From IMG/VR virus record IMGVR_UViG_3300010347_002008, positions 15,877-79,876 of that record: DNA of 64,000 bases; one strand, given 5' to 3'. Position numbers and translations under genes: made by a program. This document shows, piece by piece, positions 15,793 to 45,883 of the stretch. The DNA comes from a virus. Taxonomy: Duplodnaviria > Caudoviricetes. Under the pieces are notes generated by a model that saw only the letters and a list, made by a program, of their open reading frames with translations, had not been told where the DNA came from and made no database searches. Numbering within the stretch: position 1 is the stretch's first letter; the number at the start of each line of letters is the position of its first letter.

Positions 15793-16708
15793 ATGAAAAT
15801 TATTTGTCAAATTTGTAATAGAGAATTTTCTCGTCTTTCTGATCTTTCTAAACATGTAGGGGTTTTTCATAATTCTCAAAAAGATTATTATGATCTTTAC
15901 TTAAAATCTCCTGATGAGGGTATATGTGCTGAATGTGGAAACCCCACAAAATATTCTAATAAATGGCAACGAGGTTATCTTAAATATTGTTCTCAAGAAT
16001 GTGAAAACAAAGGATCATTTAAAGAATTTGAAAAAACTAATTTAATTAAATATGGAGTTAATAATCCAAATAAAATAAAATCTGTTAGAAATAAAATAAA
16101 ACAAACTAATATTAAAAAATATGGTAATTCTTGTCCTATGCAAAATGATAAAATTCAAAATGAAATAAGAAATAATAATCTTAAAAATTTAGGGGTTGAA
16201 TTGCCTTTTCAATCTAAAGAAATTCAAGAAAAATCTTCCTTAATAAGAGAACAAAAATACGGGGCTAAATATACTTTGCAAAATAGAGAATTGTATAATA
16301 AAGTAAAGTCATCTATAAATAAAAAGTATGGATGTGATTATTTGATGCAAAATACCGTTCTGTTTGAAAAAGCTTTTAAAACTAGAATAAAATTAAAATC
16401 TTATAAAAATACTGAATTATTATATCAAGGTTCGTATGAATTAGATTTTTTTAGAAAAATATTATGATAAATTTAATATTTAGCGAGGTCCGTCAATAAA
16501 ATATAAACATAATAAAAAACAAAAAATTTATCATAGTGATTTTTTAATTCCATCCAAAAATTTGATAGTAGAATGTAAAAACTCTTATTTAGCTAAAAGA
16601 GATAAAAATATTTTAATAAAAAAGAAAAAAGCCTCCTTAAGAGAAGGCTTTAAATGGATTATGATAATCGATAAAAACTATTCAAAATTTGAAAAAATTA
16701 TTGATTAG
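15793..16708 (+). pseudogene. zinc-finger plus PD-(D/E)xK homing-endonuclease-like gene, broken by one extra T (T7 run 16446-16452) and an in-frame TAG (16481-16483)
   Basis: CQIC..H...H and CAEC...YCSQEC fingers. The shifted frame continues LEKYYDKFNI*RGPSIKY...YHSDFLIPSKNLIVECKNSY to a TAG at 16706-16708. Confidence 0.75.
16620..16652 (-). terminator. terminator for the minus-strand tail operon
   Basis: aaagcct...aggcttt stem with a T-run on the minus strand, downstream of 16698. Confidence 0.55.
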
Positions 16709-18503
16709 CTTTTAATGCAGCATTTTCTTCTTGCAAAGATTTTACTTGTGTTTCAAGATCTGCAATTTTTGTATTTAAACTATTTACATCATATATTTCT
16801 TGATACTGTAATACAACTTGATCATAGTTTCTATAACTGTAGAATAATCCTTCATAGAAAATATATTGTGTACCATCAGAATTTTTAATTATGATTGAAT
16901 AACCATTATTAGTTTGACTCAATAATTTTGCAACTTGATCAGCCATTAATTTAAATTCTAATTGTCCTAATGTGGTATTCATATTTGTTGAATAAGTTGG
17001 ATTCACTTCTATTTTAGTTTTATCATCTAATGTGAATGATAAAGCATAATTATAAACACCAGATAAATCAACATTTTCTCTTTGAATAGGATCTGTGTTT
17101 TGATTTAATCTTTCAAATTTAAACAAATAGGTTGAATCACCATCCTTAAGGAATAATGGTCCCGTCCCTTGGGGGAGGACTTCGTTATTCATGTTTAGCA
17201 CCACATTAGTTGTGTCATAAAAGATCTTTACATACTTAGTTTTTTGTGGTCCTGCACCTGAAACAATGTTTGCAACTTCACCAGGAATCTTGTTAAATAC
17301 TTTATAAGGAATATAATTGTCAATGTTTATTCTTGTAAATGTTCTTCCATACTTTTTAGGATCTGTAGATGAAAAAGAAGCTTTGCGAATGATTTGTGAA
17401 CCATCCATTCTGTTCATTAATCTACAAATGTATTCAATATTATATGAAGAAGCAATATCAGAGTTGATAATAATTGGTCTAAACTTATTAGGTGTCATAA
17501 AGTTACTCTCTTGAGTAAACTGAAATCTTTGTGTCATCAAGGTTGTTCCAGGAGGAATCAATTCATAAACTTGTATTTCATGAATTAACACCCATTTAGC
17601 AGCCTCTGTTCCATACTCTTCTGTAAATTCTTGATAATTGTCATTTGGGTTATTTGAAGTGAATAAAGGAATTCTGCCACTTTCAATATCGCCCATGTAT
17701 TCACCAATTATAGTATCTTTCCATGTAGCATAATATTCAATGTAATCTCCGGCTGTAGATTCCGCAATAAAACAATTGAAATTATCTGCATTAGAAGTAA
17801 CCGGCAATTGTAATTGAACTTTTTCTGAAATAACATATTGATAGTTATCAATCTCAGGAATTGTACTATATTGAATATAAACATCTGACAACTCTTGTAT
17901 TTCTAATGAATCTTCAATTGGAATTCCTGTAGGATATGATGAAACTTGATGTCCCAAATGTTGTATAGAAGGAACTTTAAATTCTACATATTTGTCATAA
18001 AATCTGTTTCCTAAGTATAAAGGTTCAACAGCAAATTTAACTACATAATTTCCTCTAACTTGTTTTATCCAAGTAAAGTTCGATAAATCAACTAAATAAC
18101 CTGATACATCTTCTGCACGAATTTGTAAAAGAAAACCTGCTATATCATCAAAATTATATCCAGAAACAATATGAACTTTTATAGTATCGTGAGCATAAGG
18201 AAGAATTTGTCCAATATTTACTGATGAATCAAAATACGAATAATAAAGTGATGGATCAAAAGGATCATCATTATTAATGTACCAAGTTGATCTACTTGAA
18301 TTAGTAGGAACAGACTGCGTGGAAAGCATATTGTTTGTATTTCCAGGAGCCTCGTTTGTATAATATTGTTTTACACCCCAAACTGTTTCAGCTAAAAAAG
18401 GATTACCACAATTTATTGCAACATCATCACGATTGAATTCATACTCTAAAAGTAAGAAATCATTGAGCTGTACATATTTGGAAATATTTGTAGCCATAAT
18501 CAA
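16698..18503 (-). CDS. putative virion structural protein
   Basis: 601 aa, beta-rich composition, C-terminal coiled coil, within the tail block. Confidence 0.55.
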   Translation of the reverse strand: MIMATNISKYVQLNDFLLLEYEFNRDDVAINCGNPFLAETVWGVKQYYTNEAPGNTNNMLSTQSVPTNSSRSTWYINNDDPFDPSLYYSYFDSSVNIGQILPYAHDTIKVHIVSGYNFDDIAGFLLQIRAEDVSGYLVDLSNFTWIKQVRGNYVVKFAVEPLYLGNRFYDKYVEFKVPSIQHLGHQVSSYPTGIPIEDSLEIQELSDVYIQYSTIPEIDNYQYVISEKVQLQLPVTSNADNFNCFIAESTAGDYIEYYATWKDTIIGEYMGDIESGRIPLFTSNNPNDNYQEFTEEYGTEAAKWVLIHEIQVYELIPPGTTLMTQRFQFTQESNFMTPNKFRPIIINSDIASSYNIEYICRLMNRMDGSQIIRKASFSSTDPKKYGRTFTRINIDNYIPYKVFNKIPGEVANIVSGAGPQKTKYVKIFYDTTNVVLNMNNEVLPQGTGPLFLKDGDSTYLFKFERLNQNTDPIQRENVDLSGVYNYALSFTLDDKTKIEVNPTYSTNMNTTLGQLEFKLMADQVAKLLSQTNNGYSIIIKNSDGTQYIFYEGLFYSYRNYDQVVLQYQEIYDVNSLNTKIADLETQVKSLQEENAALKANQ

Positions 18504-19163
18504 TTAATTTTTTAATTTAAATGAAAGTTCAAATTCTTCGAAAATTTGACCCTCATCATATTCATCAAATGAAATAAAACTCTCGTTAGCTTTATCTTTT
18601 TTATTTTTAACTTTATCTTTAGAATCCTTCCATAATCCTGTAAGATCATTTAAAAAAATCCCGCCTTTTGATAATATTTTATGTATAACTCTTAAAACAA
18701 AAAGTATAATAGCGATTTTTAAGAATAACATACCTCCCCAGTGCCATTCATTTTCGGCTCCTCTAAGAACTTTATCCATAAAATCCGCCTTTACAACATA
18801 TGTATTCTGTATAAATCCCCAAACTCCAGCAACAAGAGAGGCAATAGTTCCAACATTTAATATTTGCTGCATTCTCTTTGCTTTTTTTCTACTAACTAAA
18901 GATGTTCCGGCAGTTTTAAGCACATCGTTGGCTGTATCAAGAACTTTTCCAGCAATTTCCTTTCTTTTTTGTTTTCCCTTATCAGTGCCCCATTCCTCTT
19001 CAGAAACTCCAAGTTCTTGCTGAACTTTTCTTAATAAATCTTTTAATTCTTTTTCATGTTGACGAAGTTGTTCTTGTCTTTCTGGATCAAGATCATCATC
19101 ACCTCTTAATGATGTTTGTTTTTCTTCTTTTTCGTCTTCAATATCTAATAAATCTCCTGCCAT
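18504..19163 (-). CDS. two-TM membrane protein (possible lysis accessory)
   Basis: Hydrophobic segments ILNVGTIASLVAGVWGFI and GGMLFLKIAIILFVLRVI with charged termini. Confidence 0.55.
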   Translation of the reverse strand: MAGDLLDIEDEKEEKQTSLRGDDDLDPERQEQLRQHEKELKDLLRKVQQELGVSEEEWGTDKGKQKRKEIAGKVLDTANDVLKTAGTSLVSRKKAKRMQQILNVGTIASLVAGVWGFIQNTYVVKADFMDKVLRGAENEWHWGGMLFLKIAIILFVLRVIHKILSKGGIFLNDLTGLWKDSKDKVKNKKDKANESFISFDEYDEGQIFEEFELSFKLKN

Positions 19164-19177
19164 TACATTTAATTATT

Positions 19178-20041
19178 TTACCATTGATAAATTGTATAGC
19201 CAAATGAAGGACCAACAACAATTGTAGGTTTCTTCTGAATAAAATCGTATGTTGGCATAATACCCAAATTAACACTAAACCCAGTAAACCAGTGTGAACG
19301 TTTTGGAACATCTAATAAAACCCCTTGCATATTTGTTACACTAAATCCAGGATATTTACTATTTGCAAAAACTCTTAATCTTCCATTTTCCCATTTCTGA
19401 CCCCATACTAACTCTATCTGTGTTGCTCTGGAAGTCATTTCGGTTCCTAGATGTTTAACTTCTACATCTCCTAATTCAAAATTAGATCTTGCAAAAATAG
19501 CTGGTTCATTATCAGGAGTTAATAAATATCTATCCTTAGCCCATACTAATCTAACCTTTGTTTGTCCTTTAAATAAATCATAATTTGTTGTATCTTTGTC
19601 ATAAATATAATGAAGAGTCCATGGAACTAAATATGTGGAGTCGTTTAATTTTATAGGTTCTTCTAATAAATCTTTAAGATGTGCAATATACTTTCTAAGA
19701 TCAGTCGTATCCTGTTGTAATAGAATAACAATTTTGTTTAATGATATAACCTTTCCTTTTTGTTTTTGTAACTCATCATACAAATCCTTATTAAGTTTTT
19801 TCAATTCCTTTTCAGAAGCTATGAAACCGTCAATTGTAAATTGAAGTTCCCCTGTTTTAAGTCTTTCTTTCTTAAGAGTATCTGTCAAAGCAGAATTATT
19901 TTGTTCAGTTCTCTCTAAATCTTCTCTTAATTCTCTATTTCGCTGACACATAGTAGCCAAGAATATAACTAAAACAATAGCTACAACATATCCAAAAAAT
20001 TTTGAATTAATAAAGTTCCAAATTGCTTTTAAAAATTTCAT
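19178..20041 (-). CDS. spanin-like membrane-anchored coiled-coil protein
   Basis: N-terminal TM (FFGYVVAIVLVIFLA), coiled coil, C-terminal amphipathic beta strands ending in Trp. Confidence 0.5.
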   Translation of the reverse strand: MKFLKAIWNFINSKFFGYVVAIVLVIFLATMCQRNRELREDLERTEQNNSALTDTLKKERLKTGELQFTIDGFIASEKELKKLNKDLYDELQKQKGKVISLNKIVILLQQDTTDLRKYIAHLKDLLEEPIKLNDSTYLVPWTLHYIYDKDTTNYDLFKGQTKVRLVWAKDRYLLTPDNEPAIFARSNFELGDVEVKHLGTEMTSRATQIELVWGQKWENGRLRVFANSKYPGFSVTNMQGVLLDVPKRSHWFTGFSVNLGIMPTYDFIQKKPTIVVGPSFGYTIYQW

Positions 20042-20051: not shown

Positions 20052-22127
20052 TTAATTTGCTTGAATTATTATCAACATAGGATAACCATCTACACCACCA
20101 GCACTACAATCCATTTGTCCATATCCAGATGCTGGGTATGACCCAACAAATGTTGGTCCCCACCCCTCTCCGGATCCAGTTAGATCGTATATTGTTACTC
20201 CGCTAATAGAAGGAGTAGGAAGAGACCACTGCCAATCAATTGGAGCACTATCTGTAAATCTCATCGATGTATATAAAGTATCACCATAATAAATAGTTCC
20301 ATAATCAACTTGCCAATATCCAGATCCACCATATGATGATTGATAATTAAGATTTATAGGAAGACTATACTCTGTTCCTCCAATTTCTATCCAGACCTCA
20401 ACACCCCTTTGATATATTGTTAAAGAACCTACAGGGGTTGTGCCACTAACAAATTCAATAGTACCATATCTCTGATATTCAATGTCATTGTCTTCATCCA
20501 ATGTTATTGTAATAGGAGTTAAAGTTCCAGCAGGACCTGACATCGGAGAAATTGAAACCCATGGAGGATATGAATCTATAGACCATGGACATGCAGCATT
20601 TGCTGAAACATCAACAGTCCAAGGATTGGAACCTCCAACATTTCCATTTCTAGAAGCATCAATGTAATAATATGGCCATGAATATGAATAAAGTTTTGAA
20701 TTTCCAGTTAACCATAATTCAGGACCTATAGCTCCTCTTGGTTGGTAAATTGAAACATCTTTATAAATTGTATTTCCTGGTAATAGATGAACTCTAATTT
20801 TTCCAACACGTGAATTTATAGATTCATTAGCTATTACGTCAACTAAAATTGATCCATCTAATCCTCCAATACTTGTGCATCTAATATTATACATAAAATC
20901 AGATGGATTAGATAAAATAGAGGCATTCCAAGTAAAGTTTGCGTCAACATCAAATCCTAAATCAAACGCAGCATCCGATGCACTTAATACATAACTACTT
21001 GGATTAACATAAATGGCGCCTTTAAATAAATTCTGCACTTCAGAATTTCTTGTCCATCCAGTATCTGTATATAATTTCATGTAATATGCGTATGTTTTTG
21101 CCGGAGATAGTCCTGTTATAGTTACATAACTTCCGGGAGTGCTTGAAACATTTGAAAATATTAAAGGTCTTAATGATACATCATTTATGAAACTAAATGT
21201 TTTTCCATTATAGGGATAATTATTTTCATAGAAATATAAATCACCATAAACATTTGTTGCTCCATTTACAAAATCAGATAAATTCCAGTTTATTGAACAA
21301 TTAGTAGTTCCCATTGTTCCGTAAAAACTGGTTGGAGACGATTGAAAATTAGGATCAAATATTGAATTGGCTTTTATTTCATAATTTGTTAAAATCGCAC
21401 CTACACAAGTATCTTGAGTAAAGGTATTTTTTCCTAATTCTTTCTTTTGACGTAATAATGAAACATCAAAAATTAAGTTAGTATTTCTTAATAAACCAGT
21501 ATTATCCAAGTTTCCAATATGAAAAGCTTTTTCTACTTCATTGTAAACTATAGCTAATGCTTTATGATTATCTTGAGGAGCATTTTCCCCAGATGTATAT
21601 ACTGTAAATGCATTATATTTTAAAGCAGCGTCCGATTTAATATTTGTATATTCAATTCTTGCAAAATTCTTGGGTTGAACATCATAAATATTTTCTGGAA
21701 CAGCTGTATAATCAATAGCACCTGAAACAGTATAAACATTATCAATGATAAATTTTGGAGATGAATTACTATTAAAATATCTTTCAAATCCATTACTTGT
21801 ATCTTTGCCTAGAGGAACAAAAAAACCTCCCATATTTAAGCTAGCAAATTTGTATTGATATGTATCAGTTTCGGCATTTATTTCATATGCTAAACCATCA
21901 CTATCAAAAAACAAATCTCCTGTAACATAAACACGCCCATCAGGTAAAGGTTCATCTGCAGGCCAGAGAGTTAAATTGTTTGCTATTTTATTATTAATAA
22001 TTGTAGTTTGTGTATTTGGATTTAAGCTTGTAAAATACATAGCAAGGCCTTGGCGACCATCTTCTCCTCGGTCTCCTTTTGTACCATATCCAGGTTTACC
22101 TGGTGCGTATTTGAATTTTTCGCTCAT
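20052..22127 (-). CDS. tail-associated protein with two BACON-like Ig domains
   Basis: VDANFTW...RVGKIRV...VSIYQ and VSAN..PW....PWVSISPMSG...RYGTIEF...LTIYQ; short Gly-X-Y N-terminus. Confidence 0.65.
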   Translation of the reverse strand: MSEKFKYAPGKPGYGTKGDRGEDGRQGLAMYFTSLNPNTQTTIINNKIANNLTLWPADEPLPDGRVYVTGDLFFDSDGLAYEINAETDTYQYKFASLNMGGFFVPLGKDTSNGFERYFNSNSSPKFIIDNVYTVSGAIDYTAVPENIYDVQPKNFARIEYTNIKSDAALKYNAFTVYTSGENAPQDNHKALAIVYNEVEKAFHIGNLDNTGLLRNTNLIFDVSLLRQKKELGKNTFTQDTCVGAILTNYEIKANSIFDPNFQSSPTSFYGTMGTTNCSINWNLSDFVNGATNVYGDLYFYENNYPYNGKTFSFINDVSLRPLIFSNVSSTPGSYVTITGLSPAKTYAYYMKLYTDTGWTRNSEVQNLFKGAIYVNPSSYVLSASDAAFDLGFDVDANFTWNASILSNPSDFMYNIRCTSIGGLDGSILVDVIANESINSRVGKIRVHLLPGNTIYKDVSIYQPRGAIGPELWLTGNSKLYSYSWPYYYIDASRNGNVGGSNPWTVDVSANAACPWSIDSYPPWVSISPMSGPAGTLTPITITLDEDNDIEYQRYGTIEFVSGTTPVGSLTIYQRGVEVWIEIGGTEYSLPINLNYQSSYGGSGYWQVDYGTIYYGDTLYTSMRFTDSAPIDWQWSLPTPSISGVTIYDLTGSGEGWGPTFVGSYPASGYGQMDCSAGGVDGYPMLIIIQAN

Positions 22128-22171: not shown

Positions 22172-24148
22172 TTATGGAAAATGTGATGGATGTGAAGTAT
22201 TTGTAGATCCAGCTCCCCTTGTAGTAGAACAACTGTTATAAGCATTAAGATATTTTTTCCAATAATAATATCTATTTGTTCCTATTTGAACATTTCCAGT
22301 TCCTGAAATTTTTGAAATACTCGAAATATATGCATATCCCATTGACTGTACCCATCGATCACTTTCGTAATCACAAGAAGGTCCTTGTACAATCGGATGA
22401 TCGTAAGACCCCTCTCTCCAATAACTTTTTATATAAACACTTGTGTCAATTGAAGGAGATATAGTAAATGTATTAGTCACTAAATTATATCCAGTTTGAT
22501 TTGGATCAAAATTTGGATCTCTTCCACTATTTTGTGAAGAAATATTTGCTTCCGCAACATTTGTTTGCTTCGTCCAAATACCCCCACTTTTTCTCCATGT
22601 TTCAACCCATATATGAACTCTACGACCAGTAGTTACTCCCCCTGCTGCAGCTCCCCACGCACCCATTTGAATGGTTACAGACGCAGATACATCAATAGTA
22701 GCCGATGGGGAACTTGTAAATACTAATTTTCCGTATGAATCAAATGCTACATAAACTTCTAATGGTGTCTGATTAACCGTTATTATTTGAGGAGAAGCTT
22801 CTGAATAAACATTAATATAACCTGTTCTGGATGTAGTGCCAGTAAGTTTAACTAAACTCACATCAAATGTAAATTCTCCAGGTCCAGCGCCTGAACCTCC
22901 TGACACATCAATCCACGTATAACTTCCTCGGTTGGCATTCCATCCTGTAAATGAATCTGTTGAAATATCAACACCATAAACATAAGTTCCTTTGTATGAT
23001 TCGTATGGTGTAAATTCTCCTAAATAATTAGCATTTAATATTTTAGATGCCGGATCTAAAATTGTCATAGTTGCAGGAGATCCAGTTTCTATAGTTTCTA
23101 TTTTTAGAGATTGTCTTTCCCACCCGTCCTTTTTAAGTATCATATAATATTCATAAGTTGTTCCGATACTTAAATCATTTATGATTACATAACCGGAAGG
23201 ATCAACATCATGAATAATTAAAGGCTTAAATATAGAAGCATTAATGGCCCAAGTTCCACTTGCTGCTTGTTTTTTATTAAAAACAATGGTACCTTTAATA
23301 GATGGATCATAATATCCTGGAGTAAAATCTTCAAGATTCCAGACTAAACGAGCATATTCACCAAGAGGCTGAAGAATAAATGAAGCTGGTTGCTCCTCAA
23401 ATATTGGATCAAATAAAATATTTGTAGCCTTTTCTGCATTTGATATTACAGTTCCACTTGGAGTATTTGTTTTAAATCTATTTGAATCTTGACGGTTTAC
23501 TAATAATAATGAAACATCCAATGTTAAATTAGTGTCTCTAAGATTTCCACTTTCTAAATTTCCAATTCTAAAACCATCATTATCTTTAAAAATAGCTAAC
23601 GCTTTATGCTCATCAATATCTGCTTGTTCAGCGCATGAATATAATGTAAAAGCTGATACATCTGTAAATTCAATACGAGTGAAGTCTTGCAAATTAATTC
23701 CATAAATATTTCCCAGAACTAAATAACTAGATTTTGTCGAAAAATTATTATCTATCAAATAATTAGTTGAGGCACTATGAATATTTGAATATCTTTCAAA
23801 TCCTGTGATAGTATCATATATAGGGGGAACGTGAGATTCAAAAAATTCTGACTTTGATAACGCTGCTCCTGTATTTGTAAATTCATCCTCTGAAGCATCA
23901 ATTTGATAAATATAACCTCTTGAACTTACAAATAAATCACCAGATTGATAAACTCTTCCTCCAGGAAGCTTTACTCCGGGGGTTGATGACCACATAACAT
24001 AATCATTACGTATGCAATCTTCAATGCGTAATAAATCAAATACAGGATCAAAGTCTGTGAAATACAATGCAAGACCTTGAAGGCCTGCAGATCCATCTCC
24101 TCCTTTAGCTCCGTATCCTAATAATCCTGGTGAATATTGAAATTTCAT
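22172..24148 (-). CDS. paralog of 20052-22127 with one BACON-like domain
   Basis: Shared N-terminus (Y.PG..GYG.KG..G..G.QGLA.YFT); W.DVSGGSG...SRTGYINV...ITVNQ. Confidence 0.65.
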   Translation of the reverse strand: MKFQYSPGLLGYGAKGGDGSAGLQGLALYFTDFDPVFDLLRIEDCIRNDYVMWSSTPGVKLPGGRVYQSGDLFVSSRGYIYQIDASEDEFTNTGAALSKSEFFESHVPPIYDTITGFERYSNIHSASTNYLIDNNFSTKSSYLVLGNIYGINLQDFTRIEFTDVSAFTLYSCAEQADIDEHKALAIFKDNDGFRIGNLESGNLRDTNLTLDVSLLLVNRQDSNRFKTNTPSGTVISNAEKATNILFDPIFEEQPASFILQPLGEYARLVWNLEDFTPGYYDPSIKGTIVFNKKQAASGTWAINASIFKPLIIHDVDPSGYVIINDLSIGTTYEYYMILKKDGWERQSLKIETIETGSPATMTILDPASKILNANYLGEFTPYESYKGTYVYGVDISTDSFTGWNANRGSYTWIDVSGGSGAGPGEFTFDVSLVKLTGTTSRTGYINVYSEASPQIITVNQTPLEVYVAFDSYGKLVFTSSPSATIDVSASVTIQMGAWGAAAGGVTTGRRVHIWVETWRKSGGIWTKQTNVAEANISSQNSGRDPNFDPNQTGYNLVTNTFTISPSIDTSVYIKSYWREGSYDHPIVQGPSCDYESDRWVQSMGYAYISSISKISGTGNVQIGTNRYYYWKKYLNAYNSCSTTRGAGSTNTSHPSHFP

Positions 24149-33394: not shown

Positions 33395-33408
33395 TGAATA
33401 TTAATATT

Positions 33409-34218: not shown

Positions 34219-34228
34219 TTTCTAATAA

Positions 34229-37200: not shown

Positions 37201-38191
37201 TTCGTAAATTATCAATCCCAAATTCGAGATTTATACAATCAACTTTAGACCTTTTAAAATCTATAGTGTTAGGTCCCGTATATCTTAATACAGTATTATA
37301 AACCCCTGAATTTATATAATTTGAAGAGTCTGTTAGATACGCATTTTTTGCAGAAATAGGATCCTTTCCTTCTGCAGAATACCACCATCCTGGGTATGTT
37401 CCTGTTGAGTCATCATATTCCATATAATATGGTTCAGGACCAACTTGAGTTGATGAATCAACAAAATCATAATAAGCTAAATAACTTAAACCGTCTGGGT
37501 GGGGTCTTGTATATGATTCTCGTCCTAATATATTTTCTCCTAGATCTCCTATTTCCATTCCATGACGATAATTATCATCTTCTACTTGTTTAAAGTATGC
37601 TCTCGTCTGTCCATGAGAAGTAGGAACTAAAACATAAGTTTCATTATAAGTTCCAAATGTATCAACTCTAACATTTCCTGCTGATACTGGTCCAATATAT
37701 TGTACAACACGGCTATAATCACTTGAATCTACTTCTTCCGTCCAATAACGTACACCATTTCCAGCAATTGACGGATCTGCCCATCTTATAGCCCCGGTTT
37801 CTTTTAACCATTTCCAAAATACACGTTCTGAAACTGTATTACTTAATTCAGGATTGTAAGTTTCTTGATTTAATAAATTTGCTTCTAAATTTAAAGCATA
37901 GTTTTGAAAAGACTCAGCAATAAGAACACGACCATCTTTTATAGAAGTTGTTCCTTGCTCATATTCCCAACAACCTACAATATTTCTGATATTAAAAGTA
38001 TTGAAAATAGTTCCTGTACTTGCCTCAGCAATGTTTGGTATATTTAAAAGTGCAAAGTGAGAGATCTTAACGACGTTGTTTCGCTCATTAATATTTAGGC
38101 CAATGTCCTCAACAGCAGAACTGAATGTGTAAATAGTTCCGCCTGTAGCTCTCATTCTCTTCACAAAAGGTGTAACTCGATTATTAGCCAT
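34229..38191 (-). CDS. long tail fibre-like protein with tandem repeats and a collagen-like segment
   Basis: 1320 aa; 25-26-aa repeats; (GxQ GTx)n collagen triplets near the C-terminus. Confidence 0.7.
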   Translation of the reverse strand: MANNRVTPFVKRMRATGGTIYTFSSAVEDIGLNINERNNVVKISHFALLNIPNIAEASTGTIFNTFNIRNIVGCWEYEQGTTSIKDGRVLIAESFQNYALNLEANLLNQETYNPELSNTVSERVFWKWLKETGAIRWADPSIAGNGVRYWTEEVDSSDYSRVVQYIGPVSAGNVRVDTFGTYNETYVLVPTSHGQTRAYFKQVEDDNYRHGMEIGDLGENILGRESYTRPHPDGLSYLAYYDFVDSSTQVGPEPYYMEYDDSTGTYPGWWYSAEGKDPISAKNAYLTDSSNYINSGVYNTVLRYTGPNTIDFKRSKVDCINLEFGIDNLRTIFGDSTLTFDTLATTHAVNDRFNFNAVLIYYSIYNSTRDAILATNLLGVMFLDAPSGNSSQIVEGYEGILLPSLEKIQSGPTGFGTSYSLRLNIKTDNMIDDTGAIVVDAATSDQIMADQWQAAFQNLSSAVSILTQQNSTLNYISGQYVLLQGQQTQLMNDVTALKYQVNDIARDITGTAALGPGFVWDASGYLDVSVTSMDYNYIDGSLLARDASIDDILERYSEIDSSIENLYDYTLDLSTRIDEIGPSGQDASIPYLYDYTLDLSTRIDNFSPDQDASIPYLYDYTLDLSTRIDEIGPSGQDASIPYLYDYTLDLSTRIDEIGPSGQDPSIQDLYDTALFGVGNGSGDVGLLYLDVVDNKATAVAKGLIAGDGITFDDSEYSVTINAVRDASIDDLYSNKVDVYKWNNGETHVTQIVNDGDTISMYGYDAETYFVNGIEISNDLNRVKIYNDEDASNGPWFILNNERIEANAAIHYEGVDENTTDTSALISKGYAKNTFVKETSLGTDFYWDEGSLDVSTQDISTLLLDAEDYFYTKDEIDASFYTKEQIDASFAHIGQDPSIVDLYSTKLDAEIPSTVYDPSYLNKYNVVTDDANNFIVANKIFNEDEPDLNYINESKTIYNQAPDYIKRPTYLLDAKGGVDGDNCGVGSLYLQGSDQQSGEQASISLTATQYSSGTPSVNTVNVTPGATYIDKKLEYTVAAPDDLAELSLIHKGYVDASLANKLNVGEAVTSVYNEVGDAQIFNATTAPILYARSINASTGIIVSQTANEIFIASSVEGIQGTQGEVGAQGTQGEAGAQGLAGIQGAEGAQGTAGTEGAQGTQGEVGAQGTAGTEGAQGTAGTEGAQGIQGASGVQGAIGSQGAVGSQGSVGAQGTIGAQGTIGSQGAVGSNTGFVYKTSAYTVEASCNGFIIEASGTFTLTYPNSLATGFQSTIVNIGGGNITLNASTLLTTDSSVVLRDRYASASVVHKGSGVFYGWGNLK
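34510..34846 (-). repeat. collagen-like Gly-X-Y repeat
   Basis: GIQGTQGEVGAQGTQGEAGAQ...GSQGAVG. Confidence 0.9.
36200..36500 (-). repeat. four tandem 75-78 bp coding repeats
   Basis: (IPY)LYDYTLDLSTRIDEIGPSGQDAS x4 with near-identical DNA. Confidence 0.9.
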
Positions 38192-38240
38192 ATTATTATA
38201 TTAGTTTTTTTATATATTCAATAGTATCAAAAAGTCACAT

Positions 38241-39560
38241 TTATCCAGCTAATCCAACTTGGCCGACAACAGCATATCTTTTTGACGGAGGTTTACCGTC
38301 TGGATATATCAAACTTAAATCAATTGTGCCAATAGTATCTTTCCAAGCCGTCTCGATATTTCCCGAAGGATCTCCTTTATAAAAATGTTCCCCATTTAAA
38401 TCTAAGTTCCACAAAGTGAAATTTTTAATATTTGTCCAACTAACTGAATCCCATCCTCCAATCCAAGTAGATCCTCTTGAAGATCCCGTTCCTGCATTAA
38501 CTTTGCTCTGAATAGCTCCATTAATATAAAGACTAACATCACCAGCTGCAGATGCTCCGTTATAATAAAAATCTATATGATTTTTTTGATTTGGAAGAAA
38601 AATAGGACATTGTTTAACTGTCGAGCCATAATAATATTGTATAGAGGTGTCAGAAATAAATCTTACTCCCATATTATTAGTTCCTCCTAATACTATCATA
38701 ACAGAGGTGCCAGTTCCGATGTTTGTAGAGGTGTCCATATAACAATCAAAGGAAATTCTATAATCTGAAGCAGAAGGAGGTGCTAAGCTAGTATTCGATT
38801 TCAAAAATACACTTCCATCAAATTTTAATAATTGTGTTGGTCCATAATTAATTAAAACAGAAACATCATACGCTGTTGACGAACTAAAAATATTTAATAT
38901 CTTTGCTATATTGGCATTGGAAGAACCGTCTGTGGGTGGAGAGTTTCGATATTTATCGAGCCATATTGCAGTTGTATAATTAGGCAAAACTTGATTCCAT
39001 CTAGTTGCTAATTTATCAAGTATGTTATCTACAGTTGTTGTATCTAATGAACAACTTACACAATTAATTTGGAAAAAATGTCGGTTTAATGTTGTTGGGA
39101 ATATAATAGTCTGCAAATTTTTATTTCCATATATTTGTGATGAAATAGGGTTTTTTATCTGCATAAGATCGGGGTTAGTATTAGCATCAAATACTCCACC
39201 TAAATTACTTAATGTTGATAGATCTAATACACCAACTATTTTATCATTATCTATTCCGATTTCTAAAATTCCGACACTTCCAGTTGTAGATCCTTGATAA
39301 ACTTTTACAGTTTTATTTCCGCTCAATGAATAAACATGAGTAAATTTATTGGAATTCAATATTGATCCATCACCCAAATCCCACCATAACGTTCCAGATG
39401 ATGTAGCAACTGAAGGATCAAACGAAGACCCACCAACATCGTTAGTCACAAATTGCAAAAGCAGAGGACCATAGTCAATAGGAGGAGTATAGTCCAAACA
39501 AATTGGAATTTTTCCAATTGATAACGGAATTCCCCCTATATGTAATATTGTTTTACTCAT
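38241..39560 (-). CDS. adhesin-like protein (PKD-like, LRR-like and LamG-like segments)
   Basis: WDLGDG...HVY; LDLSTLSNL; HIDFYY...SLYING...KNFTLWN. Confidence 0.55.
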   Translation of the reverse strand: MSKTILHIGGIPLSIGKIPICLDYTPPIDYGPLLLQFVTNDVGGSSFDPSVATSSGTLWWDLGDGSILNSNKFTHVYSLSGNKTVKVYQGSTTGSVGILEIGIDNDKIVGVLDLSTLSNLGGVFDANTNPDLMQIKNPISSQIYGNKNLQTIIFPTTLNRHFFQINCVSCSLDTTTVDNILDKLATRWNQVLPNYTTAIWLDKYRNSPPTDGSSNANIAKILNIFSSSTAYDVSVLINYGPTQLLKFDGSVFLKSNTSLAPPSASDYRISFDCYMDTSTNIGTGTSVMIVLGGTNNMGVRFISDTSIQYYYGSTVKQCPIFLPNQKNHIDFYYNGASAAGDVSLYINGAIQSKVNAGTGSSRGSTWIGGWDSVSWTNIKNFTLWNLDLNGEHFYKGDPSGNIETAWKDTIGTIDLSLIYPDGKPPSKRYAVVGQVGLAG

Positions 39561-39577: not shown

Positions 39578-40837
39578 CTAAAAATTAATAAATATTCCTG
39601 CTGCGGTACTTCCATCAAAATAATGAGTCCAAGAGTTCATATAATCATCACTACGATAAACACCGCCGCCATGAGAAGCAGAAGAATCTGTAACGAAAAC
39701 ATATTTTCCTGACTTAGACATGGCAACATCATAATATATTGAAGCGGGTAATTCAGTTATTCGACTCCATGTTGCCCCATAATTAATAGATTTATAACAA
39801 TATCCGACTACATAACCTCCTCCACTGCTGCCTCCTCCACCATAAGCAATCATATATTTACCATCAGCCGACATAGCACATCCTCCCCAAAATTGACTAT
39901 AACCCACATCTTTTAATGTCCATGTGCTTCCATAATTAGTAGAAAGATTCAAATATGGTTGAGGGGCATTTGATCTATCTGATGAGGGTATTAAAATATA
40001 TTTACCATCATAAGAAATAGCACCTACAGCTGGCATTCTTTGAGACACTGTTGTTGAGTTCCATGTTGTCCAATCTGTACTAACATAAACAACTGCATTT
40101 CCGCTAGAATGATATTGTTCCCAAACTACTATTCGACTTCCATCTCCGGAAACAACCGCACCTCCCATTGGAGATCCTGAAGGAATTTGTGTAAAATTAT
40201 TCCATGTTATCCCATAATCACTAGAATATTTAGTCTGCATTATTCCTGTTTCAGACCCTGTACCACCAATGATCATATTTTTTCCTGATTTATCAACATA
40301 TCCGGCTGTATAACGCATAGATGCTCCTGATAAATTAACAGAGACATCTTGACCAAAATTTCTTGAAGTAATTACTGTTCCATCTATATAATAAGTACAA
40401 GAAGAAGCCATTAAATATTTTCCGTCTTGAGATCCCCACATAAAAGAGCCGGGGCTTGTTGATCCGGGTGTAAATGGAAGCGAAACATCTCTAGTCCAAG
40501 TATTTCCACTATCCTCAGATAATGCAAGATACACTGTTCCTCTAATGGTTCCGGAATCGTTATATATAGATGCGTTTGTTACAGCATAGAAAATATTGTT
40601 TGTAGAAATATTTAAATTATAAGCGGTAATGGTAGGAAATGTCGCGGGTAACTCAGTATAAGTAATTCCTAAATCTTCTGATTCATATGTTTTTCCCGCA
40701 ACAGAAACAATAATTTTTTGATTAGAACCGATCATTAATTTTAATCTTCTGGCATTTTGATTATTACCAGAATCATTCATAATCTTCATTCTATTACTTC
40801 CTTTAATACCACCATCCTGTATAATTATTCTACTCAT
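39578..40837 (-). CDS. BNR/Asp-box beta-propeller protein
   Basis: Repeated S.D/N.G.TW boxes (SEDSGNTW, SSDYGITW, STNYGSTW, SINYGATW, SDDYMNSW). Confidence 0.8.
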   Translation of the reverse strand: MSRIIIQDGGIKGSNRMKIMNDSGNNQNARRLKLMIGSNQKIIVSVAGKTYESEDLGITYTELPATFPTITAYNLNISTNNIFYAVTNASIYNDSGTIRGTVYLALSEDSGNTWTRDVSLPFTPGSTSPGSFMWGSQDGKYLMASSCTYYIDGTVITSRNFGQDVSVNLSGASMRYTAGYVDKSGKNMIIGGTGSETGIMQTKYSSDYGITWNNFTQIPSGSPMGGAVVSGDGSRIVVWEQYHSSGNAVVYVSTDWTTWNSTTVSQRMPAVGAISYDGKYILIPSSDRSNAPQPYLNLSTNYGSTWTLKDVGYSQFWGGCAMSADGKYMIAYGGGGSSGGGYVVGYCYKSINYGATWSRITELPASIYYDVAMSKSGKYVFVTDSSASHGGGVYRSDDYMNSWTHYFDGSTAAGIFINF

Positions 40838-40840
40838 AAA

Positions 40841-42478
40841 TTATTCAAATTTTCCAGATTCAATCCATTTACCACCACTATCTCTTTTTTCAAAAATTAA
40901 TTTTCCATTTGAGGCATCATCAGCAATATATAATCGCCAACATCTATTTGTAGCAGGGGCTGATGCAGGATCTCCTATATAGAAATAATTCATAACAGCA
41001 ATACCCTGAGATCCGTCTAGGGCTCCTGATCCATTAGCAACGCCGTAAACTTTTAATTGGGTATTTCCATCCAAATTAAATTTATAACCCTGCTCGGTAT
41101 TACCAGCCGATGCAGTAATATTTTTTTCAATAAGAGTAGCCACTCCAGCATCTGCTTCTAACTCAATATAATCATAAAATAATACATTTGAGCAAGGATC
41201 ATCAACTGTAATTTCATTATTAGATTCTCTCCATATTCTAGGAACAAATTCCAATCCTGTACATGCATCATTAGCCGCAACTAATTTGCCTGCTTGATAC
41301 GAACTTGGAGTATCATAAAGTCCAAGGAATGTTGAAGCATTATTAACAATTGTTCTTAATGTTGTGATAGAAGAATCTTGTGCAGAATTCCATGTATATA
41401 GATAATTAAGAGATGCATCTGGAGCATTACCATATGTTAATTTTTTAGAGGTGGTATCATAATAAACTGTATAGTTTGTTTTAGTATTATCCATTCCTGA
41501 AATGAATAGATCGCTAGAAATACTTACATCTCCTATAACTGTTAATCTTGCTGCTGGATCATGATCCGGAGCGCTTGTATCTCCTAGTACAATATTACCA
41601 TTGCTTGCACAGTATATAACATATTTAGTTCCACCCGCCCTATTATAAAGCATGAAATCGTTTCTTCCATCATTTGTATCATCGGTAACCCAAATCCATG
41701 ACCAATCCGGGTTGTGTCGACTAGCAAATTTTAATGATGTGGTTGTTGCTCCAGTTGGGTTTTCATTATAAAGTTGCCATGATTGTTCTCCTGTGCCACT
41801 TACTTTAAATACCGGGTTAACTCCCCCAGGCCCATATACATGAAGATAAGAAGAAGGGTTTGCAGTTCCAATACCTAAATTAAGTCCAGTAAAATATAAA
41901 CTAGATTCGGCTACAATTGATCCATCTCCTGCAGCAGTTAATATTTGATTATTAGATCCAACTACACCATTAAACCATCCAACAGTTCCGCCACCCCCAC
42001 CGCCTTGAACACTTGGTTCTAAATAACCTCCATTCCATTTAAAATAAACATCATTAAAACTGACTTCAGGAATAAAAATATCAGCAACACTTAAAGGTTT
42101 AACAGCATGCCATTTACTTGCGTCGTTAGCAGATGGGTCATATACTAATATATAGCCAGAAGAAATATCAGCACTAATTGAGACATCCAACAAAGCCGAA
42201 AGATAAGATGCCCCTCCAACTGAAAAAACTTCCCATGATGGATCTCCTGTTGCATTATATTGATATATTTGTCGTTGTCCTCCTGCTTCTGCAGAATTAA
42301 GAACACAAACTAACATACCATTTTCTAATCTAGCGGTATAAATCGAGTTTCTAGATACATCAGTTTGTACAGTTTGATAACCTCCTCTCAATTCATTTGC
42401 AAACGCAGATGGAAAAGTATCTGTATCGGCCCAAGGTCGTATTGCTGCAACAACTAATGTTCCTTGATTGTTTGCCAT
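40841..42478 (-). CDS. tail fibre-like protein
   Basis: Shares its N-terminal domain with 42503-44002; GIGT.NP fibre knob motif. Confidence 0.6.
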   Translation of the reverse strand: MANNQGTLVVAAIRPWADTDTFPSAFANELRGGYQTVQTDVSRNSIYTARLENGMLVCVLNSAEAGGQRQIYQYNATGDPSWEVFSVGGASYLSALLDVSISADISSGYILVYDPSANDASKWHAVKPLSVADIFIPEVSFNDVYFKWNGGYLEPSVQGGGGGGTVGWFNGVVGSNNQILTAAGDGSIVAESSLYFTGLNLGIGTANPSSYLHVYGPGGVNPVFKVSGTGEQSWQLYNENPTGATTTSLKFASRHNPDWSWIWVTDDTNDGRNDFMLYNRAGGTKYVIYCASNGNIVLGDTSAPDHDPAARLTVIGDVSISSDLFISGMDNTKTNYTVYYDTTSKKLTYGNAPDASLNYLYTWNSAQDSSITTLRTIVNNASTFLGLYDTPSSYQAGKLVAANDACTGLEFVPRIWRESNNEITVDDPCSNVLFYDYIELEADAGVATLIEKNITASAGNTEQGYKFNLDGNTQLKVYGVANGSGALDGSQGIAVMNYFYIGDPASAPATNRCWRLYIADDASNGKLIFEKRDSGGKWIESGKFE

Positions 42479-42502: not shown

Positions 42503-44002
42503 TTAAGTAACTACAACTGTTATATTGGATCCAGACTGTGTGTTAAGGCTTCTATAGGTATAAAAGTTTTCTGTATATGGAACTGCAGTTAAGTTTGTGA
42601 CTAATAAGGATGATTCTAAGAATGTCGTAGCAAATCCACCAACAGTAAAGGCCGTTGCTTGTCCAAATCTTGTAGGATAACAATACCAGATATATTCTCC
42701 CCCACCATTTGCTATTGTAAATGTTCTTCCTCTCGCAGTTGCTAAAGCACTTGTATCAAGACCAGTAACATCAGATGATTCACCAAATGAAGTTTGTGGA
42801 TCTGTGCCCCAATAAGCCTTATTTTGACCAGTAATAGTATTTGTGGCGCTTGCGCTTCCTGCAACTCTTAAATAATCTAATGATGAAGAAGGAACGCCTT
42901 TATTATTATAATAAGTACCTGTTCCTGCGCCCCAGCTTGCATTTACCGTCCATGTATTTGTTCCAAGAGCAATTGAAACGTCTGTAGGATTATGAGTTTG
43001 TGTATTTGATGTAGCCGTATAAACACCATCAACAGTATTTCCAGGAATTCTAAATACAAATTGCAAAGCTGCTCCTGTTAAGCTTCCATCAGTTGTTCCA
43101 TCACCATTCGTTATTCTACCTGAGTTATATGTAGCAGTTAATGTTGGACCATATAATGTACCAACTTCTAAGGTTCCACTTATACCACTTAATCCTAAAC
43201 TGTTTAAAAGTCCTACAGTTGCATCTACAGTTGGGAACAATAAATCAGTCCAAATTTCATCATATGTTTTACCCCTTAAACCACCAGCTGACGTATCCTT
43301 TGGTATACCTCCTACAGCCACAGGCATTATAATATTATCAGCTACTGTTGGAGTATATCTTGATGTATCGGTTGTTGATACAAAAATACTTACATCAATT
43401 TTACCATCTACCCAATATAAACCATATCCAATTGATGATGATTTTACAAATTGATCAAGTCCATAAACAGATCCCAAACTAACTTCAAGAGATCCATTAT
43501 TCCAAACAAAATCATCACTTAATGAAGCATTTGGAATAAAAGCTGCTCTAATATATGCTAAAGATGAATCTTGAACAACTTGCCATGCTGATAAATTTCC
43601 TAAAGATGTATCAAGTCCTTGATTCCATACAGTTAAATTTCCTAATGAAGTTTCATGGTTTGAAACCCACGAATTTAAACTACTGATAGAACTATCTCTA
43701 AGTTGTAATGATCCATCAACATAAGCTAATGTTACTCCTCCGGGATTAAATAGCTCCCAAGTTGTTCCATTCAATTGATACATAGTTCTTGCACCTCCAT
43801 TTGAAGCAGAACTAAGAACATATACTAACATACCATCTTCTTTTCTATCAGAATATGTAGTTAGCAATAAGTTTCTTGAAGTGTCATTGGCAACGATATG
43901 TAAACCTCCTCGAATTTCATTCGCAAATGCAGAGGCAAATACGTCGGTATCAGCCCAAGGGCGAATCGCTGCTATAACTAATGTTCCTGAATTATTTGCC
44001 AT
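42503..44002 (-). CDS. tail fibre-like protein
   Basis: N-terminus paralogous to 40841; C-half paralogous to 44027. Confidence 0.6.
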   Translation of the reverse strand: MANNSGTLVIAAIRPWADTDVFASAFANEIRGGLHIVANDTSRNLLLTTYSDRKEDGMLVYVLSSASNGGARTMYQLNGTTWELFNPGGVTLAYVDGSLQLRDSSISSLNSWVSNHETSLGNLTVWNQGLDTSLGNLSAWQVVQDSSLAYIRAAFIPNASLSDDFVWNNGSLEVSLGSVYGLDQFVKSSSIGYGLYWVDGKIDVSIFVSTTDTSRYTPTVADNIIMPVAVGGIPKDTSAGGLRGKTYDEIWTDLLFPTVDATVGLLNSLGLSGISGTLEVGTLYGPTLTATYNSGRITNGDGTTDGSLTGAALQFVFRIPGNTVDGVYTATSNTQTHNPTDVSIALGTNTWTVNASWGAGTGTYYNNKGVPSSSLDYLRVAGSASATNTITGQNKAYWGTDPQTSFGESSDVTGLDTSALATARGRTFTIANGGGEYIWYCYPTRFGQATAFTVGGFATTFLESSLLVTNLTAVPYTENFYTYRSLNTQSGSNITVVVT

Positions 44003-44026
44003 TTTATATTTTTTATTATTTTATTT

Positions 44027-45883
44027 TTAAGTTATTACAATTGAAATATTAGTTCCACTTTGAAGCCCATCTGTTCTCCATACGTTGTAATTTTCTGTAT
44101 GACCATAACTATTGGTTACAGAAACAGGACCAATATTATGAATACCAGTAAATGTTAAACCACCAACTGTAAATACTGGAGTTCCTGGAATTGATGATGG
44201 ATAACAATAATAAATGTATTCAGCTGTAGGTGAAACATAGAATAATGTTTTTGTGTAAGTATTTGAGAATTCACTACTGTCTAATGTAATAATTTCATTG
44301 CTTGTTAATGAAGAGTTTGAACTAACACCCCAATATCTCTTATTTCTACTTGTAATAGCTCCTGAAACTTGAGATATTGTTGCTGCCACTCTTTGTGCAT
44401 CTAAGTTAGTTCCAACATTTCCTTTATTATCATAATAAGTTCCTGTTCCAATAGCATGACTAACGTCAACTGACCAAGTATATGTTGCCCCGACATTTCC
44501 AATTAAAATAGGAGTTGTAAATACATGTGTTGATGAGTTTAAAGTCCAACTACCTTCTGCTTCAATTGTTCCACCAGGAAGCTTAAATGTATAATAGTAA
44601 GCGTCACCAGTTAAATTAGGTCCTGGGGTTCCATTACCATTCTGTATTGCTCCAGGATTAAATGCAGCAACAAGTGTTGGTGTGTATGACGAGCTAGGCT
44701 CAGCATATGCGCTTAGTAATCCAGAATACGAAAGACTCTTAGGAGTAGAAACCGAAGCATAAACAGTTGGGAATAATAAATCCATAAATATTTGTTCTAT
44801 AGTTTTTCCTCTTAGATCTCCAACTGTGGTACCAGCAGGGATTCCTCCAACCGTATATGGCATTGATAATGAATCAGGAGCTGTAGGATCAAAAATTGCT
44901 GGTCCTACTTCTTGACCATTTAATATAATTGATCCATCAACATAAATATTTCCTGTTGTAGAAATATCTTGGGTAATTAATAATCCTTCGATCCATGCGT
45001 TTGGACCGTAAATGCAAACATCTCTAACTGCTAAAGGATCATTTATTTGTAATGGAGACCCATATCCTATAAGAATATTATCAGATGAATCCCTTAAGGC
45101 ATTGTTAATTTGAATATCTCTTGCAATTAATTCATCACCATCCATATAAAGTGACGAATCCCTTACTGTTGTAGTAGCAGTAAATCTTGGAATATGATTA
45201 ATAGTTCCTGGACCTACAATTCCGGTTCCACCCCCACCTCCGCCAGTTCCACTAGCTTCAACACTGTATTTATATTGAGTCCATGTTGTACCCCATGATG
45301 GATCGTATGCAATAGCAATAAATTCTTCATAAGCCGCTCCTGCCCCGCTTGCGTCGACAATATAACTTATATTGTTGCATGGATCCAATAAAACTTCAAG
45401 TTGATTAATCCCAATTAAAGATGAATCAAAATAAATTCCTACAACTTGTGAAAGATTATCATTTGCTAAGAAAATTGGATTTGCGTTTGAAACCTTATAA
45501 TATGGTTTCATTACGTCTATGACTTTATATCCTGCTGGTTCATAAGGAAATTTCCATGATGATGTATCAATTCCATATGTACAAGGATCTCTACCAACGG
45601 TCACGGGATCCACATACATTCTATAGAAATTGTAATCAGCAGTGGTATTATTATCGTATAAATTAGTGAATTGTCTCTTTACAATTAAATTATCTACGAC
45701 TGCAGTAACAAATTCTCCCCTTGTGCCTTTTATTCTACCAGTTGTCTCTAATGGAACAGTTAGAATCCCTAAACTACCATCAAAAAATACATCAATATAT
45801 CTCTCAAATGATAAGAAGTTTGTGTTTAAAATCTTAGGAAGTTGAGGTACTGGTGTATGCAGATTTAATTGGGTCCAAATCAT
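44027..45883 (-). CDS. tail fibre-like protein
   Basis: MPYTVGGIP..LRGKT..DLLFPTV and YIYYCYP...FTVGG modules shared with 42503. Confidence 0.6.
   Translation of the reverse strand: MIWTQLNLHTPVPQLPKILNTNFLSFERYIDVFFDGSLGILTVPLETTGRIKGTRGEFVTAVVDNLIVKRQFTNLYDNNTTADYNFYRMYVDPVTVGRDPCTYGIDTSSWKFPYEPAGYKVIDVMKPYYKVSNANPIFLANDNLSQVVGIYFDSSLIGINQLEVLLDPCNNISYIVDASGAGAAYEEFIAIAYDPSWGTTWTQYKYSVEASGTGGGGGGTGIVGPGTINHIPRFTATTTVRDSSLYMDGDELIARDIQINNALRDSSDNILIGYGSPLQINDPLAVRDVCIYGPNAWIEGLLITQDISTTGNIYVDGSIILNGQEVGPAIFDPTAPDSLSMPYTVGGIPAGTTVGDLRGKTIEQIFMDLLFPTVYASVSTPKSLSYSGLLSAYAEPSSSYTPTLVAAFNPGAIQNGNGTPGPNLTGDAYYYTFKLPGGTIEAEGSWTLNSSTHVFTTPILIGNVGATYTWSVDVSHAIGTGTYYDNKGNVGTNLDAQRVAATISQVSGAITSRNKRYWGVSSNSSLTSNEIITLDSSEFSNTYTKTLFYVSPTAEYIYYCYPSSIPGTPVFTVGGLTFTGIHNIGPVSVTNSYGHTENYNVWRTDGLQSGTNISIVIT

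Follow-up and report, generated by a model that had tools for sequence, protein, structure and literature searches.

The 64,000-nucleotide stretch of viral DNA analyzed here (the window) covers positions 15,877 to 79,876 of the IMG/VR record IMGVR_UViG_3300010347_002008 (Duplodnaviria; Caudoviricetes) and contains a block of tail fiber genes whose products are strongly enriched in a single tripeptide, D-x-S. We pooled the 13 consecutive minus-strand open reading frames (ORFs) of this block (positions 20052–45883, 8438 residues) and took expected counts from per-protein shuffles, so that each protein is compared with its own composition. D-x-S occurs 148 times where 51.2 occurrences are expected (2.9-fold, z 13.5), an excess that is real and stronger than first noted in the initial annotation of the window. 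Our tentative reading is that D-x-S, with cysteine at times in place of serine, is a sequon for a modification directed at the Ser or Cys side chain, probably glycosylation.

The signal is narrow. Among all gapped residue pairs at gaps of 1–4, D-x-S is the sole outlier, and the runner-up reaches a z of 4.8. At the third position of D-x-? serine (2.89-fold) and cysteine (2.33-fold) stand out and all remaining residues are at or below 1.16-fold; D-x-T is found 47 times versus 49.6 expected (0.95-fold), and D-x-N, D-x-D and D-x-G stand at 0.81-, 0.74- and 0.60-fold. Two residues before a serine, Asp alone stands out. The initial annotation had listed NAS and EAS as variants of the motif, but neither N-x-S (1.05-fold) nor E-x-S (1.28-fold) is enriched, and the reversed S-x-D (0.94-fold) and the wider D-x-x-S (0.78-fold) are likewise flat. 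Position x is typically filled by V, A, P, S, G or T, all small and uncharged, with proline allowed as originally proposed; N, Q, E, H and M never occur at x, and K and Y occur once each. Restricting the motif to D-[VAPSGT]-S sharpens the excess to 121 sites versus 22 expected (5.5-fold, z 22–24), and D-x-S followed by A, I, L, V, M or T is found 92 times versus 19 expected. The residue before the Asp is mostly hydrophobic and the residue after the Ser is mostly I, L or T. Sites are internal, at a density of ~1.75 per 100 residues. Neither the N-glycosylation sequon N-x-[ST] (112 versus 113.0 expected) nor the Campylobacter-type D-x-N-x-S/T is enriched in the fibers.

Enrichment is spread over almost the entire block. 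Starting from its low-coordinate end, the minus-strand ORFs encode a 691-aa fiber protein with a BACON domain (20052–22127; 8 D-x-S and 1 D-x-C versus 4.0 expected), a 658-aa fiber protein that carries the second BACON domain of the window as a weak match (22172–24148; 12 versus 4.3), a 1562-aa protein of immunoglobulin (Ig)-like beta-sandwiches (24154–28842; 20 D-x-S and 2 D-x-C versus 8.7), a 762-aa conserved tail protein (phrog_29329; 28853–31141; 7 versus 3.8) and a 170-aa protein (31153–31665; 6 versus 1.6). The following 486-aa ORF (31702–33162) lies inside the block and is not enriched (3 versus 2.7). Beyond it are a 269-aa protein with a Laminin_G_3 (concanavalin A (ConA)-like) lectin domain (33409–34218; 7 versus 1.4), a 1320-aa fiber with collagen repeats and a tandem repeat (34229–38191; 31 versus 9.3), a 439-aa protein that has a leucine-rich repeat (LRR)-like module and PKD matches too weak to pass the cut-off (38241–39560; 11 versus 3.3), a 419-aa protein with weak BNR-like matches (39578–40837; 7 versus 2.9), a 545-aa fiber protein (40841–42478; 14 D-x-S plus DAC and DPC versus 3.5), a 499-aa fiber protein that is its N-terminal paralog (42503–44002; 11 versus 3.0) and a 618-aa fiber protein (44027–45883; 11 D-x-S and 3 D-x-C versus 3.0). 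Hand counts made for the initial annotation, 11 of 28 aspartates in 42503–44002 and 14 of 37 in 40841–42478 with two further D-x-C, proved exact.

Two of these ORFs contain repeats that contribute to their counts. In the protein encoded by 34229–38191, a 26-aa unit (…QDASIPYLYDYTLDLSTRIDEIGPSG…) with two D-x-S is repeated in tandem some five to six times over residues ~515–670, and this array lies upstream of the collagen-like region. The LRR-like module of the 38241–39560 product (residues ~24–150) spans ~50 aa and reads C-n-L-t-G-T-L-D-l-S-g-L-t-g-L-G-G in consensus. Metagenomic proteins as long as 2782 aa carry as many as ~30 repeats of it, and 150 hits together contain 879 copies; the module accounts for one D-x-S in the window protein and for much of the excess in its distant homologs.

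The initial annotation had placed the start of the enriched region at 16698, but the true start is 20052. The 601-aa minus-strand ORF at 16698–18503 is borderline (6 versus 2.6, p 0.03), and both ORFs between it and the block (18504–20041) contain no D-x-S. Elsewhere in the window, the excess recurs in a large plus-strand baseplate protein that is cut by the window end (62262–63998; 8 D-x-S and 1 D-x-C versus 2.6) and that we call gp7-like by position only, downstream of gp6. The gp6-like baseplate wedge protein (58902–60821, plus strand) serves as an internal negative control, with 1 D-x-S versus 2.9 expected; the original count of one in 44 aspartates is correct. The 11 non-fiber ORFs tested, each of at least 325 aa, give 0.77-fold together. 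The claim that the motif is enriched in distal tail and fiber proteins is therefore borne out across the block and in the gp7-like ORF, with ORF 31702–33162 as the exception.

The same confinement is evident at the scale of genomes. The window (~30% G+C) is part of a 79.9-kb viral contig that is near-identical to a 260-kb IMG/VR contig, IMGVR_UViG_3300044580_000214 (G001; CheckV completeness 64%); a related 405-kb genome with terminal repeats (G002) is complete. Anaerobic digesters or sediments were the source of the samples that gave G001 and its relatives. The nearest named relatives of the gp6-like and 762-aa tail proteins are the Prevotella Lak megaphages, at ~40% identity, and more distant relatives include the huge phages LR7565xx and LR745206, jumbo phages of Tenacibaculum, Chryseobacterium and Flavobacterium, and Sphingomonas phage PAU. 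In G001 the significant ORFs are the 1224-aa gp7-like protein, whose full copy holds 27 D-x-S versus 7.5, the fiber block and one pentapeptide-repeat-like ORF (233754–235418). The excess in this last ORF is probably explained by pentapeptide-type repeats, for which there is a weak Pfam match (E 5e-8, below the cut-off). Outside the 60–112 kb tail block, G001 has 253 D-x-S versus 235 expected. The enriched ORFs of G002 encode giant fiber-class proteins with collagen and S74 chaperone, PKD/DUF285 or fn3 domains, and the remainder of that genome has 356 versus 331 expected. No further ORF is significant in the whole of G001 or G002; capsid and sheath, which were not individually identified, are presumably among these. 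The initial annotation had spoken of exposed virion surfaces, a description that holds for the fiber, gp7-like and related classes but is too broad, as no other ORF is significant in either contig. Within a single genome the motif occurs in BACON, Ig-like, ConA-like, PKD/LRR, collagen/S74 and coiled-coil contexts. At every one of the related IMG/VR loci, fiber ORFs have 2.1–3.0-fold D-x-S and neighboring genes ~1-fold.

Beyond this clade the excess fades. Shuffle tests of D-[VAPSGT]-S on sets of fiber or tail ORFs give observed/expected ratios of 5.5 for the window fibers (z 24) and 5.75 for those of G002 (z 30), and 2.75 (z 7) for Lak-A1. The corresponding ratios are 1.34 for LR756500, 0.47 for LR745206, 1.02 for pT24, 1.20 for PAU, 1.19 for MaF61, 1.19 for T4 (gp7–12, wac and gp34–37) and 1.29 for crAss001 (gp22–26). 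The motif is thus found in all clade members tested (2.1–3.2-fold for D-x-S), is weaker in the Prevotella Lak megaphages, and is not equally frequent in unrelated or homologous fibers of other phages (~1-fold); eight fiber sets from unrelated or outgroup phages give 0.7–1.16-fold. A general property of phage fibers is excluded by T4, crAss001, MaF61, pT24, PAU, MA9V-1, LR756500 and LR745206. An effect of the host phylum was likewise rejected: phages of Bacteroides, Flavobacterium, Tenacibaculum and Chryseobacterium show no excess, and Bacteroidota hosts as such do not explain the motif.

The 762-aa family allows the comparison to be made column by column. Its DRS, DLS, DPS and DAS/DVS/DSS sites are fixed in eight or nine of nine clade sequences, and the same columns in the Lak, huge-phage, pT24, PAU and MA9V-1 homologs read DDA, NDI, ELQ, DQN, DGN and DVN. 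Remote homologs of ORF 38241–39560 were considered as a further same-fold control and left unused, being confounded by the TLDLS of the LRR-like module.

Conservation was followed most closely in the 1562-aa protein, which has 120 homologs among the matches listed, mostly full-length and 41–91% identical. In these 120 listed homologs, which are not phylogenetically independent, D-x-S totals 3169 versus 1454 expected (2.18-fold) and D-x-T 993 versus 1038. In an alignment of 96 orthologs both the Asp and the Ser of the motif exceed other aspartates and serines in conservation. The ratio of their joint conservation to the product of the two separate conservations is 1.54, and no other of the 12 motifs compared scores higher. 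At 40–50% identity only 35% of sites persist, and density stays at 2–3-fold across the 120 listed homologs; in the 96 sequences, sites fall at 300 distinct positions, of which 133 are seen in a single sequence. Two thirds of the sites thus turn over, and inheritance alone does not account for the density, which is upheld as sites continue to be gained and retained. Where Ser is lost and Asp is kept, the replacements are N, D, T, G and A, in that order. Of the replacements in motif Ser columns 4.0% are to cysteine, compared with 0.6% in control Ser columns (6.7-fold), and D-x-C appears in 14 of 65 motif columns versus Cys in 32 of 283 control columns, in apparently independent events. The Ser/Cys interchange described in the initial annotation is therefore real.

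A single ortholog of 24154–28842, P0034 on a 6.7-kb Logan contig, has no D-x-S excess (8 versus 9.1). It lacks Ser at several sites that are kept in 60–88 of the 96 sequences, where it reads DKK, EVD, DDD, DLD and DGQ, and by its sequence may represent a lineage with relaxed constraint. We considered it as a natural knock-out and set it aside, as it is only a 2.3 standard deviation outlier on a 6.7-kb contig and supports no conclusion.

The 1562-aa protein is also the only fiber-class protein modeled: residues 1–1000 were predicted with AlphaFold from 68 sequences, with a mean predicted local distance difference test score (pLDDT) of 80.5. The model is a chain of Ig-like beta-sandwich domains, for which Foldseek returns generic Ig-like arrays only. 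In its confident parts, 11 of 13 motif serines are in loop states. Four of 13 motif aspartates, versus three of 42 other aspartates, are the first residue after a strand; one motif is directly before a helix and two are inside strands. The model thus puts most sites in the loops that follow strands, not within the strands themselves. With exposure judged from secondary structure alone, the motif appears to mark turns directly after strands, a placement that fits an exposed acceptor loop and a turn-forming role equally well. Structural subclasses can be recognized among the sites, namely LRR-like TLDLS/LDLS, shaft-like FVWDxSG and helix or coiled-coil starts of the form DxSIxxLY.

Candidate enzymes are encoded outside the window, on the near-identical G001, and glycosyltransferase and sugar-nucleotide genes, whose co-occurrence the initial annotation had proposed as a check, are indeed present in this genome. 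A GDP-mannose 4,6-dehydratase (E 3e-139) adjoins an epimerase/reductase, and a third epimerase-family protein is also present, as are a T4 beta-glucosyltransferase-like protein and a second thymidylate-synthase-like gene. The beta-glucosyltransferase-like gene, the dehydratase and epimerase/reductase pair and the thymidylate-synthase-like gene are located at 15144–16334, 27892–30106 and 30819–31700 of G001 (loci L027 and L028). Their similarities suggest DNA hypermodification together with GDP-6-deoxyhexose synthesis, the latter probably encoded by the phage itself through the dehydratase and the epimerase/reductase-like protein. G001 further encodes a GT2+GT25 fusion, at L019:490–2040 on the minus strand; the GT2 half has weak similarity to annotated glycosyltransferases of Mycobacterium prophages and phages. 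Searches of G001 and G002 for the NTP_transferase and GT1 (PF00534) families gave no hit.

A GT2-like protein of 275 aa, encoded at L039:3876–4703 on the minus strand, is of particular interest. It has an invariant D105-A-D107 motif of the DxD type and is predicted to adopt a GT-A fold (AlphaFold2 model, pLDDT 84). Its top structural neighbor is ThuS (Z 12.4, root mean square deviation 3.3 over 165 aligned residues), SunS scores Z 11.3, and many further GT-A enzymes score Z 10–11.3. A sequence search against the PDB gave no useful match, and in the ESM Atlas it matches only viral hypothetical clusters, with 32% GT2 labels. The protein is the most conserved of 104 ortholog pairs between G001 and G002 (78.4% identity versus a median of 50.3%), and the only phage records to contain it, of 50,697, are those of the 15 Lak genomes. 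The GT-A and the motif are therefore both present in the clade and in Lak, which amounts to one independent phylogenetic contrast.

These findings can be brought together in a model that takes Phi-D-[V/A/P/S/G/T]-S(/C)-[I/L/T/A/V] as a sequon specific to the clade, located in post-strand loops and at some helix starts, and carried by the outer baseplate and all fiber proteins of a Lak-related jumbo phage. A phage-encoded cytoplasmic enzyme would modify the unbranched Ser or Cys nucleophile, with O- or S-glycosylation as the leading candidate chemistry and the 275-aa GT-A, or another phage glycosyltransferase, as the putative writer. We infer the modification at the motif, its writer and the identity of a deoxyhexose alike. 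A trans-acting, clade-specific factor that acts on an unbranched nucleophile would fit the Ser/Cys-only profile with Thr excluded and the small uncharged residue at x; it would also fit the occurrence of the motif in many folds within the clade, its absence from homologs outside and the way density holds while sites turn over, all of them features that a generic structural turn would hardly explain. As the phage has both sugar-nucleotide genes and glycosyltransferases, glycosylation is the simplest choice of chemistry. That the GT-A itself glycosylates Ser/Cys at more than 100 loop sites per genome, so as to sugar-coat the baseplate periphery and fibers, possibly with a 6-deoxyhexose, is a rather doubtful extension of this model, which would amount to a protein glycosylation code not known before.

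Several observations weigh against modification. Loss of the motif Ser is mostly to N, D and G, which are classic turn residues; two ancient sites in the 762-aa family, DWS and DPS, are common to outgroups including PAU and pT24; and a minority of sites are ordinary structural motifs, comprising LRR-type LDLS and these ancient DWS and DPS turns. On the enzyme side, the ThuS match of the GT-A is tied within one Z unit with SpsA, TarP, GalS1 and other GT-A enzymes, and the GT2+GT25 fusion has no close counterpart in G002. The 275-aa GT-A adjoins a thymidylate-synthase gene in both genomes and, given this neighbor and the presence of a beta-glucosyltransferase-like gene, could act in DNA modification instead. 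PAU has sugar-nucleotide genes but no motif. The association between enzyme and motif, as read from the genomes, amounts to a single contrast, and many other genes must share the same distribution. The modification proposed in the initial annotation is therefore supported in part: the excess outlasts composition and repeat controls, is not equally strong in the fibers of other phages and lies in loops rather than strands, so that it withstands all three sequence-level challenges, but the link to an enzyme is one phylogenetic contrast.

A purely structural explanation, in which D-x-S is the Asx-turn, beta-turn or capping sequence preferred by this clade and is kept unmodified for fold stability or to prevent aggregation, is the rival that we take most seriously, although we consider it somewhat unlikely. 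Its standing derives from the location of sites at strand ends, from the N, D and G replacements and from the structural subclasses: the model places sites at strand ends, in hairpin loops and at helix N-termini, the repeats TLDLS, FVWDxSG and DxSIxxLY are recognizable, and DWS and DPS are kept as far out as PAU and pT24. Generic turns, however, would also be expected to enrich N-x-S, D-x-T, D-x-N, D-x-D and D-x-G, which are found at 0.6–1.05-fold, and there is next to no Glu or Lys at x, although type I turns favor these residues at i+1. Outgroup members of the same families lack the motif at the same columns, and the beta-rich fibers of T4, crAss001 and other phages stand at ~1-fold. A 2–3-fold density in spite of 65% turnover would require continuing selection for the exact pair in many unrelated folds.

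Less probable still is a non-covalent role, with exposed Asp and Ser acting as weak cation or host-glycan sites or as the recognition element of a clade-specific fiber assembly factor. Such a role would agree with the restriction of the motif to receptor-facing proteins with lectin-type domains (BACON, ConA-like and PKD), with the co-conservation of Asp and Ser as a pair and with clade specificity. The excess does not extend, however, to Thr or Asn, which should do equally well as hydrogen-bonding ligands, and the favored substitute is Cys, which is ill suited to bind hard cations or sugars. The D-x-S-x-S of the metal-ion-dependent adhesion site (MIDAS) type occurs 5 times versus 4.7 expected, and no candidate partner emerged. 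We consider it very improbable that the excess is an artifact of composition, of repeats within proteins, of paralogy or of a signal in the DNA, and rejected composition or repeats and a DNA-level motif on the basis of shuffles, repeat removal and codon use. It is true that 13 sites come from the single tandem repeat of ORF 34229–38191 and that some fiber ORFs are paralogous at their N-termini, but enrichment survives composition shuffles (z 13–24) and dropping those 13 sites leaves ~2.7-fold. Other D..S spacings and the reverse order are flat, and the 300 distinct positions in one ortholog family argue in the same direction. Motif serines use the AGY and TCN codon boxes as in the background, which indicates a signal at the protein level rather than a DNA motif.

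Should D-x-S(/C) prove to be a modification sequon, this would be the first time that an acceptor code for tail fiber modification is defined in phages, and the first in the Lak megaphage lineage, phages of gut and anaerobic Bacteroidota. It would then be clear that a virus can set a dense coat of glycans or other adducts specifically on its receptor-binding apparatus, which would bear on host recognition, on protease and antibody evasion and on fiber engineering. If the motif is purely structural, it would represent a striking lineage-wide, fold-independent tripeptide preference, for which motif-based predictions of post-translational modification must control.

A 531-aa right-handed beta-helix, disaggregatase-related protein of G001 (237209–238804; L038:17209–18804) has a C-terminal Por_Secre_tail domain (E 9e-9) and may be exported through the Bacteroidota-specific type IX secretion system (T9SS) of the host. 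BACON domains in the fibers and this T9SS sorting domain on a phage protein indicate a Bacteroidota host for this uncultured giant or jumbo phage, which is related to Lak. Searched by blastn against 50,697 phage records, the fiber block gave zero matches. Between the window and G001, the flanking fiber genes are 99–100% identical and the fiber cassettes between them differ (31153–39560 in the window, with ORFs of 439, 1320, 269, 486 and 170 aa; 84456–91872 in G001, with ORFs of 891, 703 and 848 aa). Identical flanks around different cassettes suggest recent cassette exchange between near-identical genomes. Adjoining the fiber block on the opposite strand are genes for a protein with three S1 RNA-binding domains (45986–47221) and an ankyrin-repeat protein (47266–49131), and G001 has a second ankyrin protein at 26464–27264.

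One of the closest known systems is the general O-glycosylation of Bacteroidota, with the sequon D-(S/T)-(A/I/L/V/M/T) (PMC8550257). The phage motif resembles it in the host phylum, in having Asp upstream of a hydroxyl residue and in the small or hydrophobic residue that follows. It differs in that its register is one residue off and in that Thr is not accepted, D-x-T being at 0.95-fold. Host O-glycosylation acts on exported proteins; the tail proteins described here would be expected to assemble in the cytoplasm. The host-type D[ST][AILVMT] is moreover depleted in the fibers (22 versus 37.5 expected, 0.59-fold, z −2.8) that hold 148 D-x-S versus 51, which confirms the difference in register pointed out initially and argues that the motif is not a variant reading of the host system. 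The depletion may reflect either avoidance of the host sequon or a side effect of the D-x-S preference. The Bacteroides phage crAss001 has no D-x-S excess. A literature search for a D-x-S sequon or fiber glycosylation in Lak-type phages found nothing relevant.

Virus-encoded glycosylation of virions has precedents. Chloroviruses make their capsid glycans with GDP-sugar enzymes of their own (PMC9614988), and mycobacteriophages have glycans on capsid and tail tube (Freeman et al. 2023, as cited in PMC12619734). The mycobacteriophage glycans are on the C-terminal tails of these subunits. Like these viruses, the phage has glycosyltransferases and a GDP-mannose dehydratase/epimerase pair; unlike the mycobacteriophage glycans, its motif is internal and is carried only by baseplate-periphery and fiber proteins. 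The glycocin glycosyltransferases ThuS and SunS, which are cytoplasmic and of the GT-A type, attach sugars to Ser and/or Cys residues located in loops. The clade GT-A resembles ThuS in predicted structure, although sequence identity is 12% and ThuS and SunS act on small peptides with a leader, whereas the virion proteins are large. We know of no D-x-S rule for these enzymes. The autotransporter heptosyltransferases Aah and TibC are also cytoplasmic and Ser-preferring, and O-glycosylate many sites of beta-rich adhesins in short strand-loop-strand elements; they are GT-B-type, iron-containing dodecamers that use ADP-heptose, and to our knowledge no rule of Asp at −2 applies to them. None of their homologs turned up here, where no search was aimed at them.

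The remaining comparison is with structural motifs. The motif shares with an Asx-turn or type I beta-turn the placement of Asp (i) and Ser (i+2) immediately behind a strand. The companion turn sequences of generic Asx-turns show no excess, however, and that of D-x-S is specific to the clade. The motif also differs from LRR (LxxLDLSxN) and pentapeptide (ADLSG) repeats, in that x is Leu in only 10 of the 148 sites.

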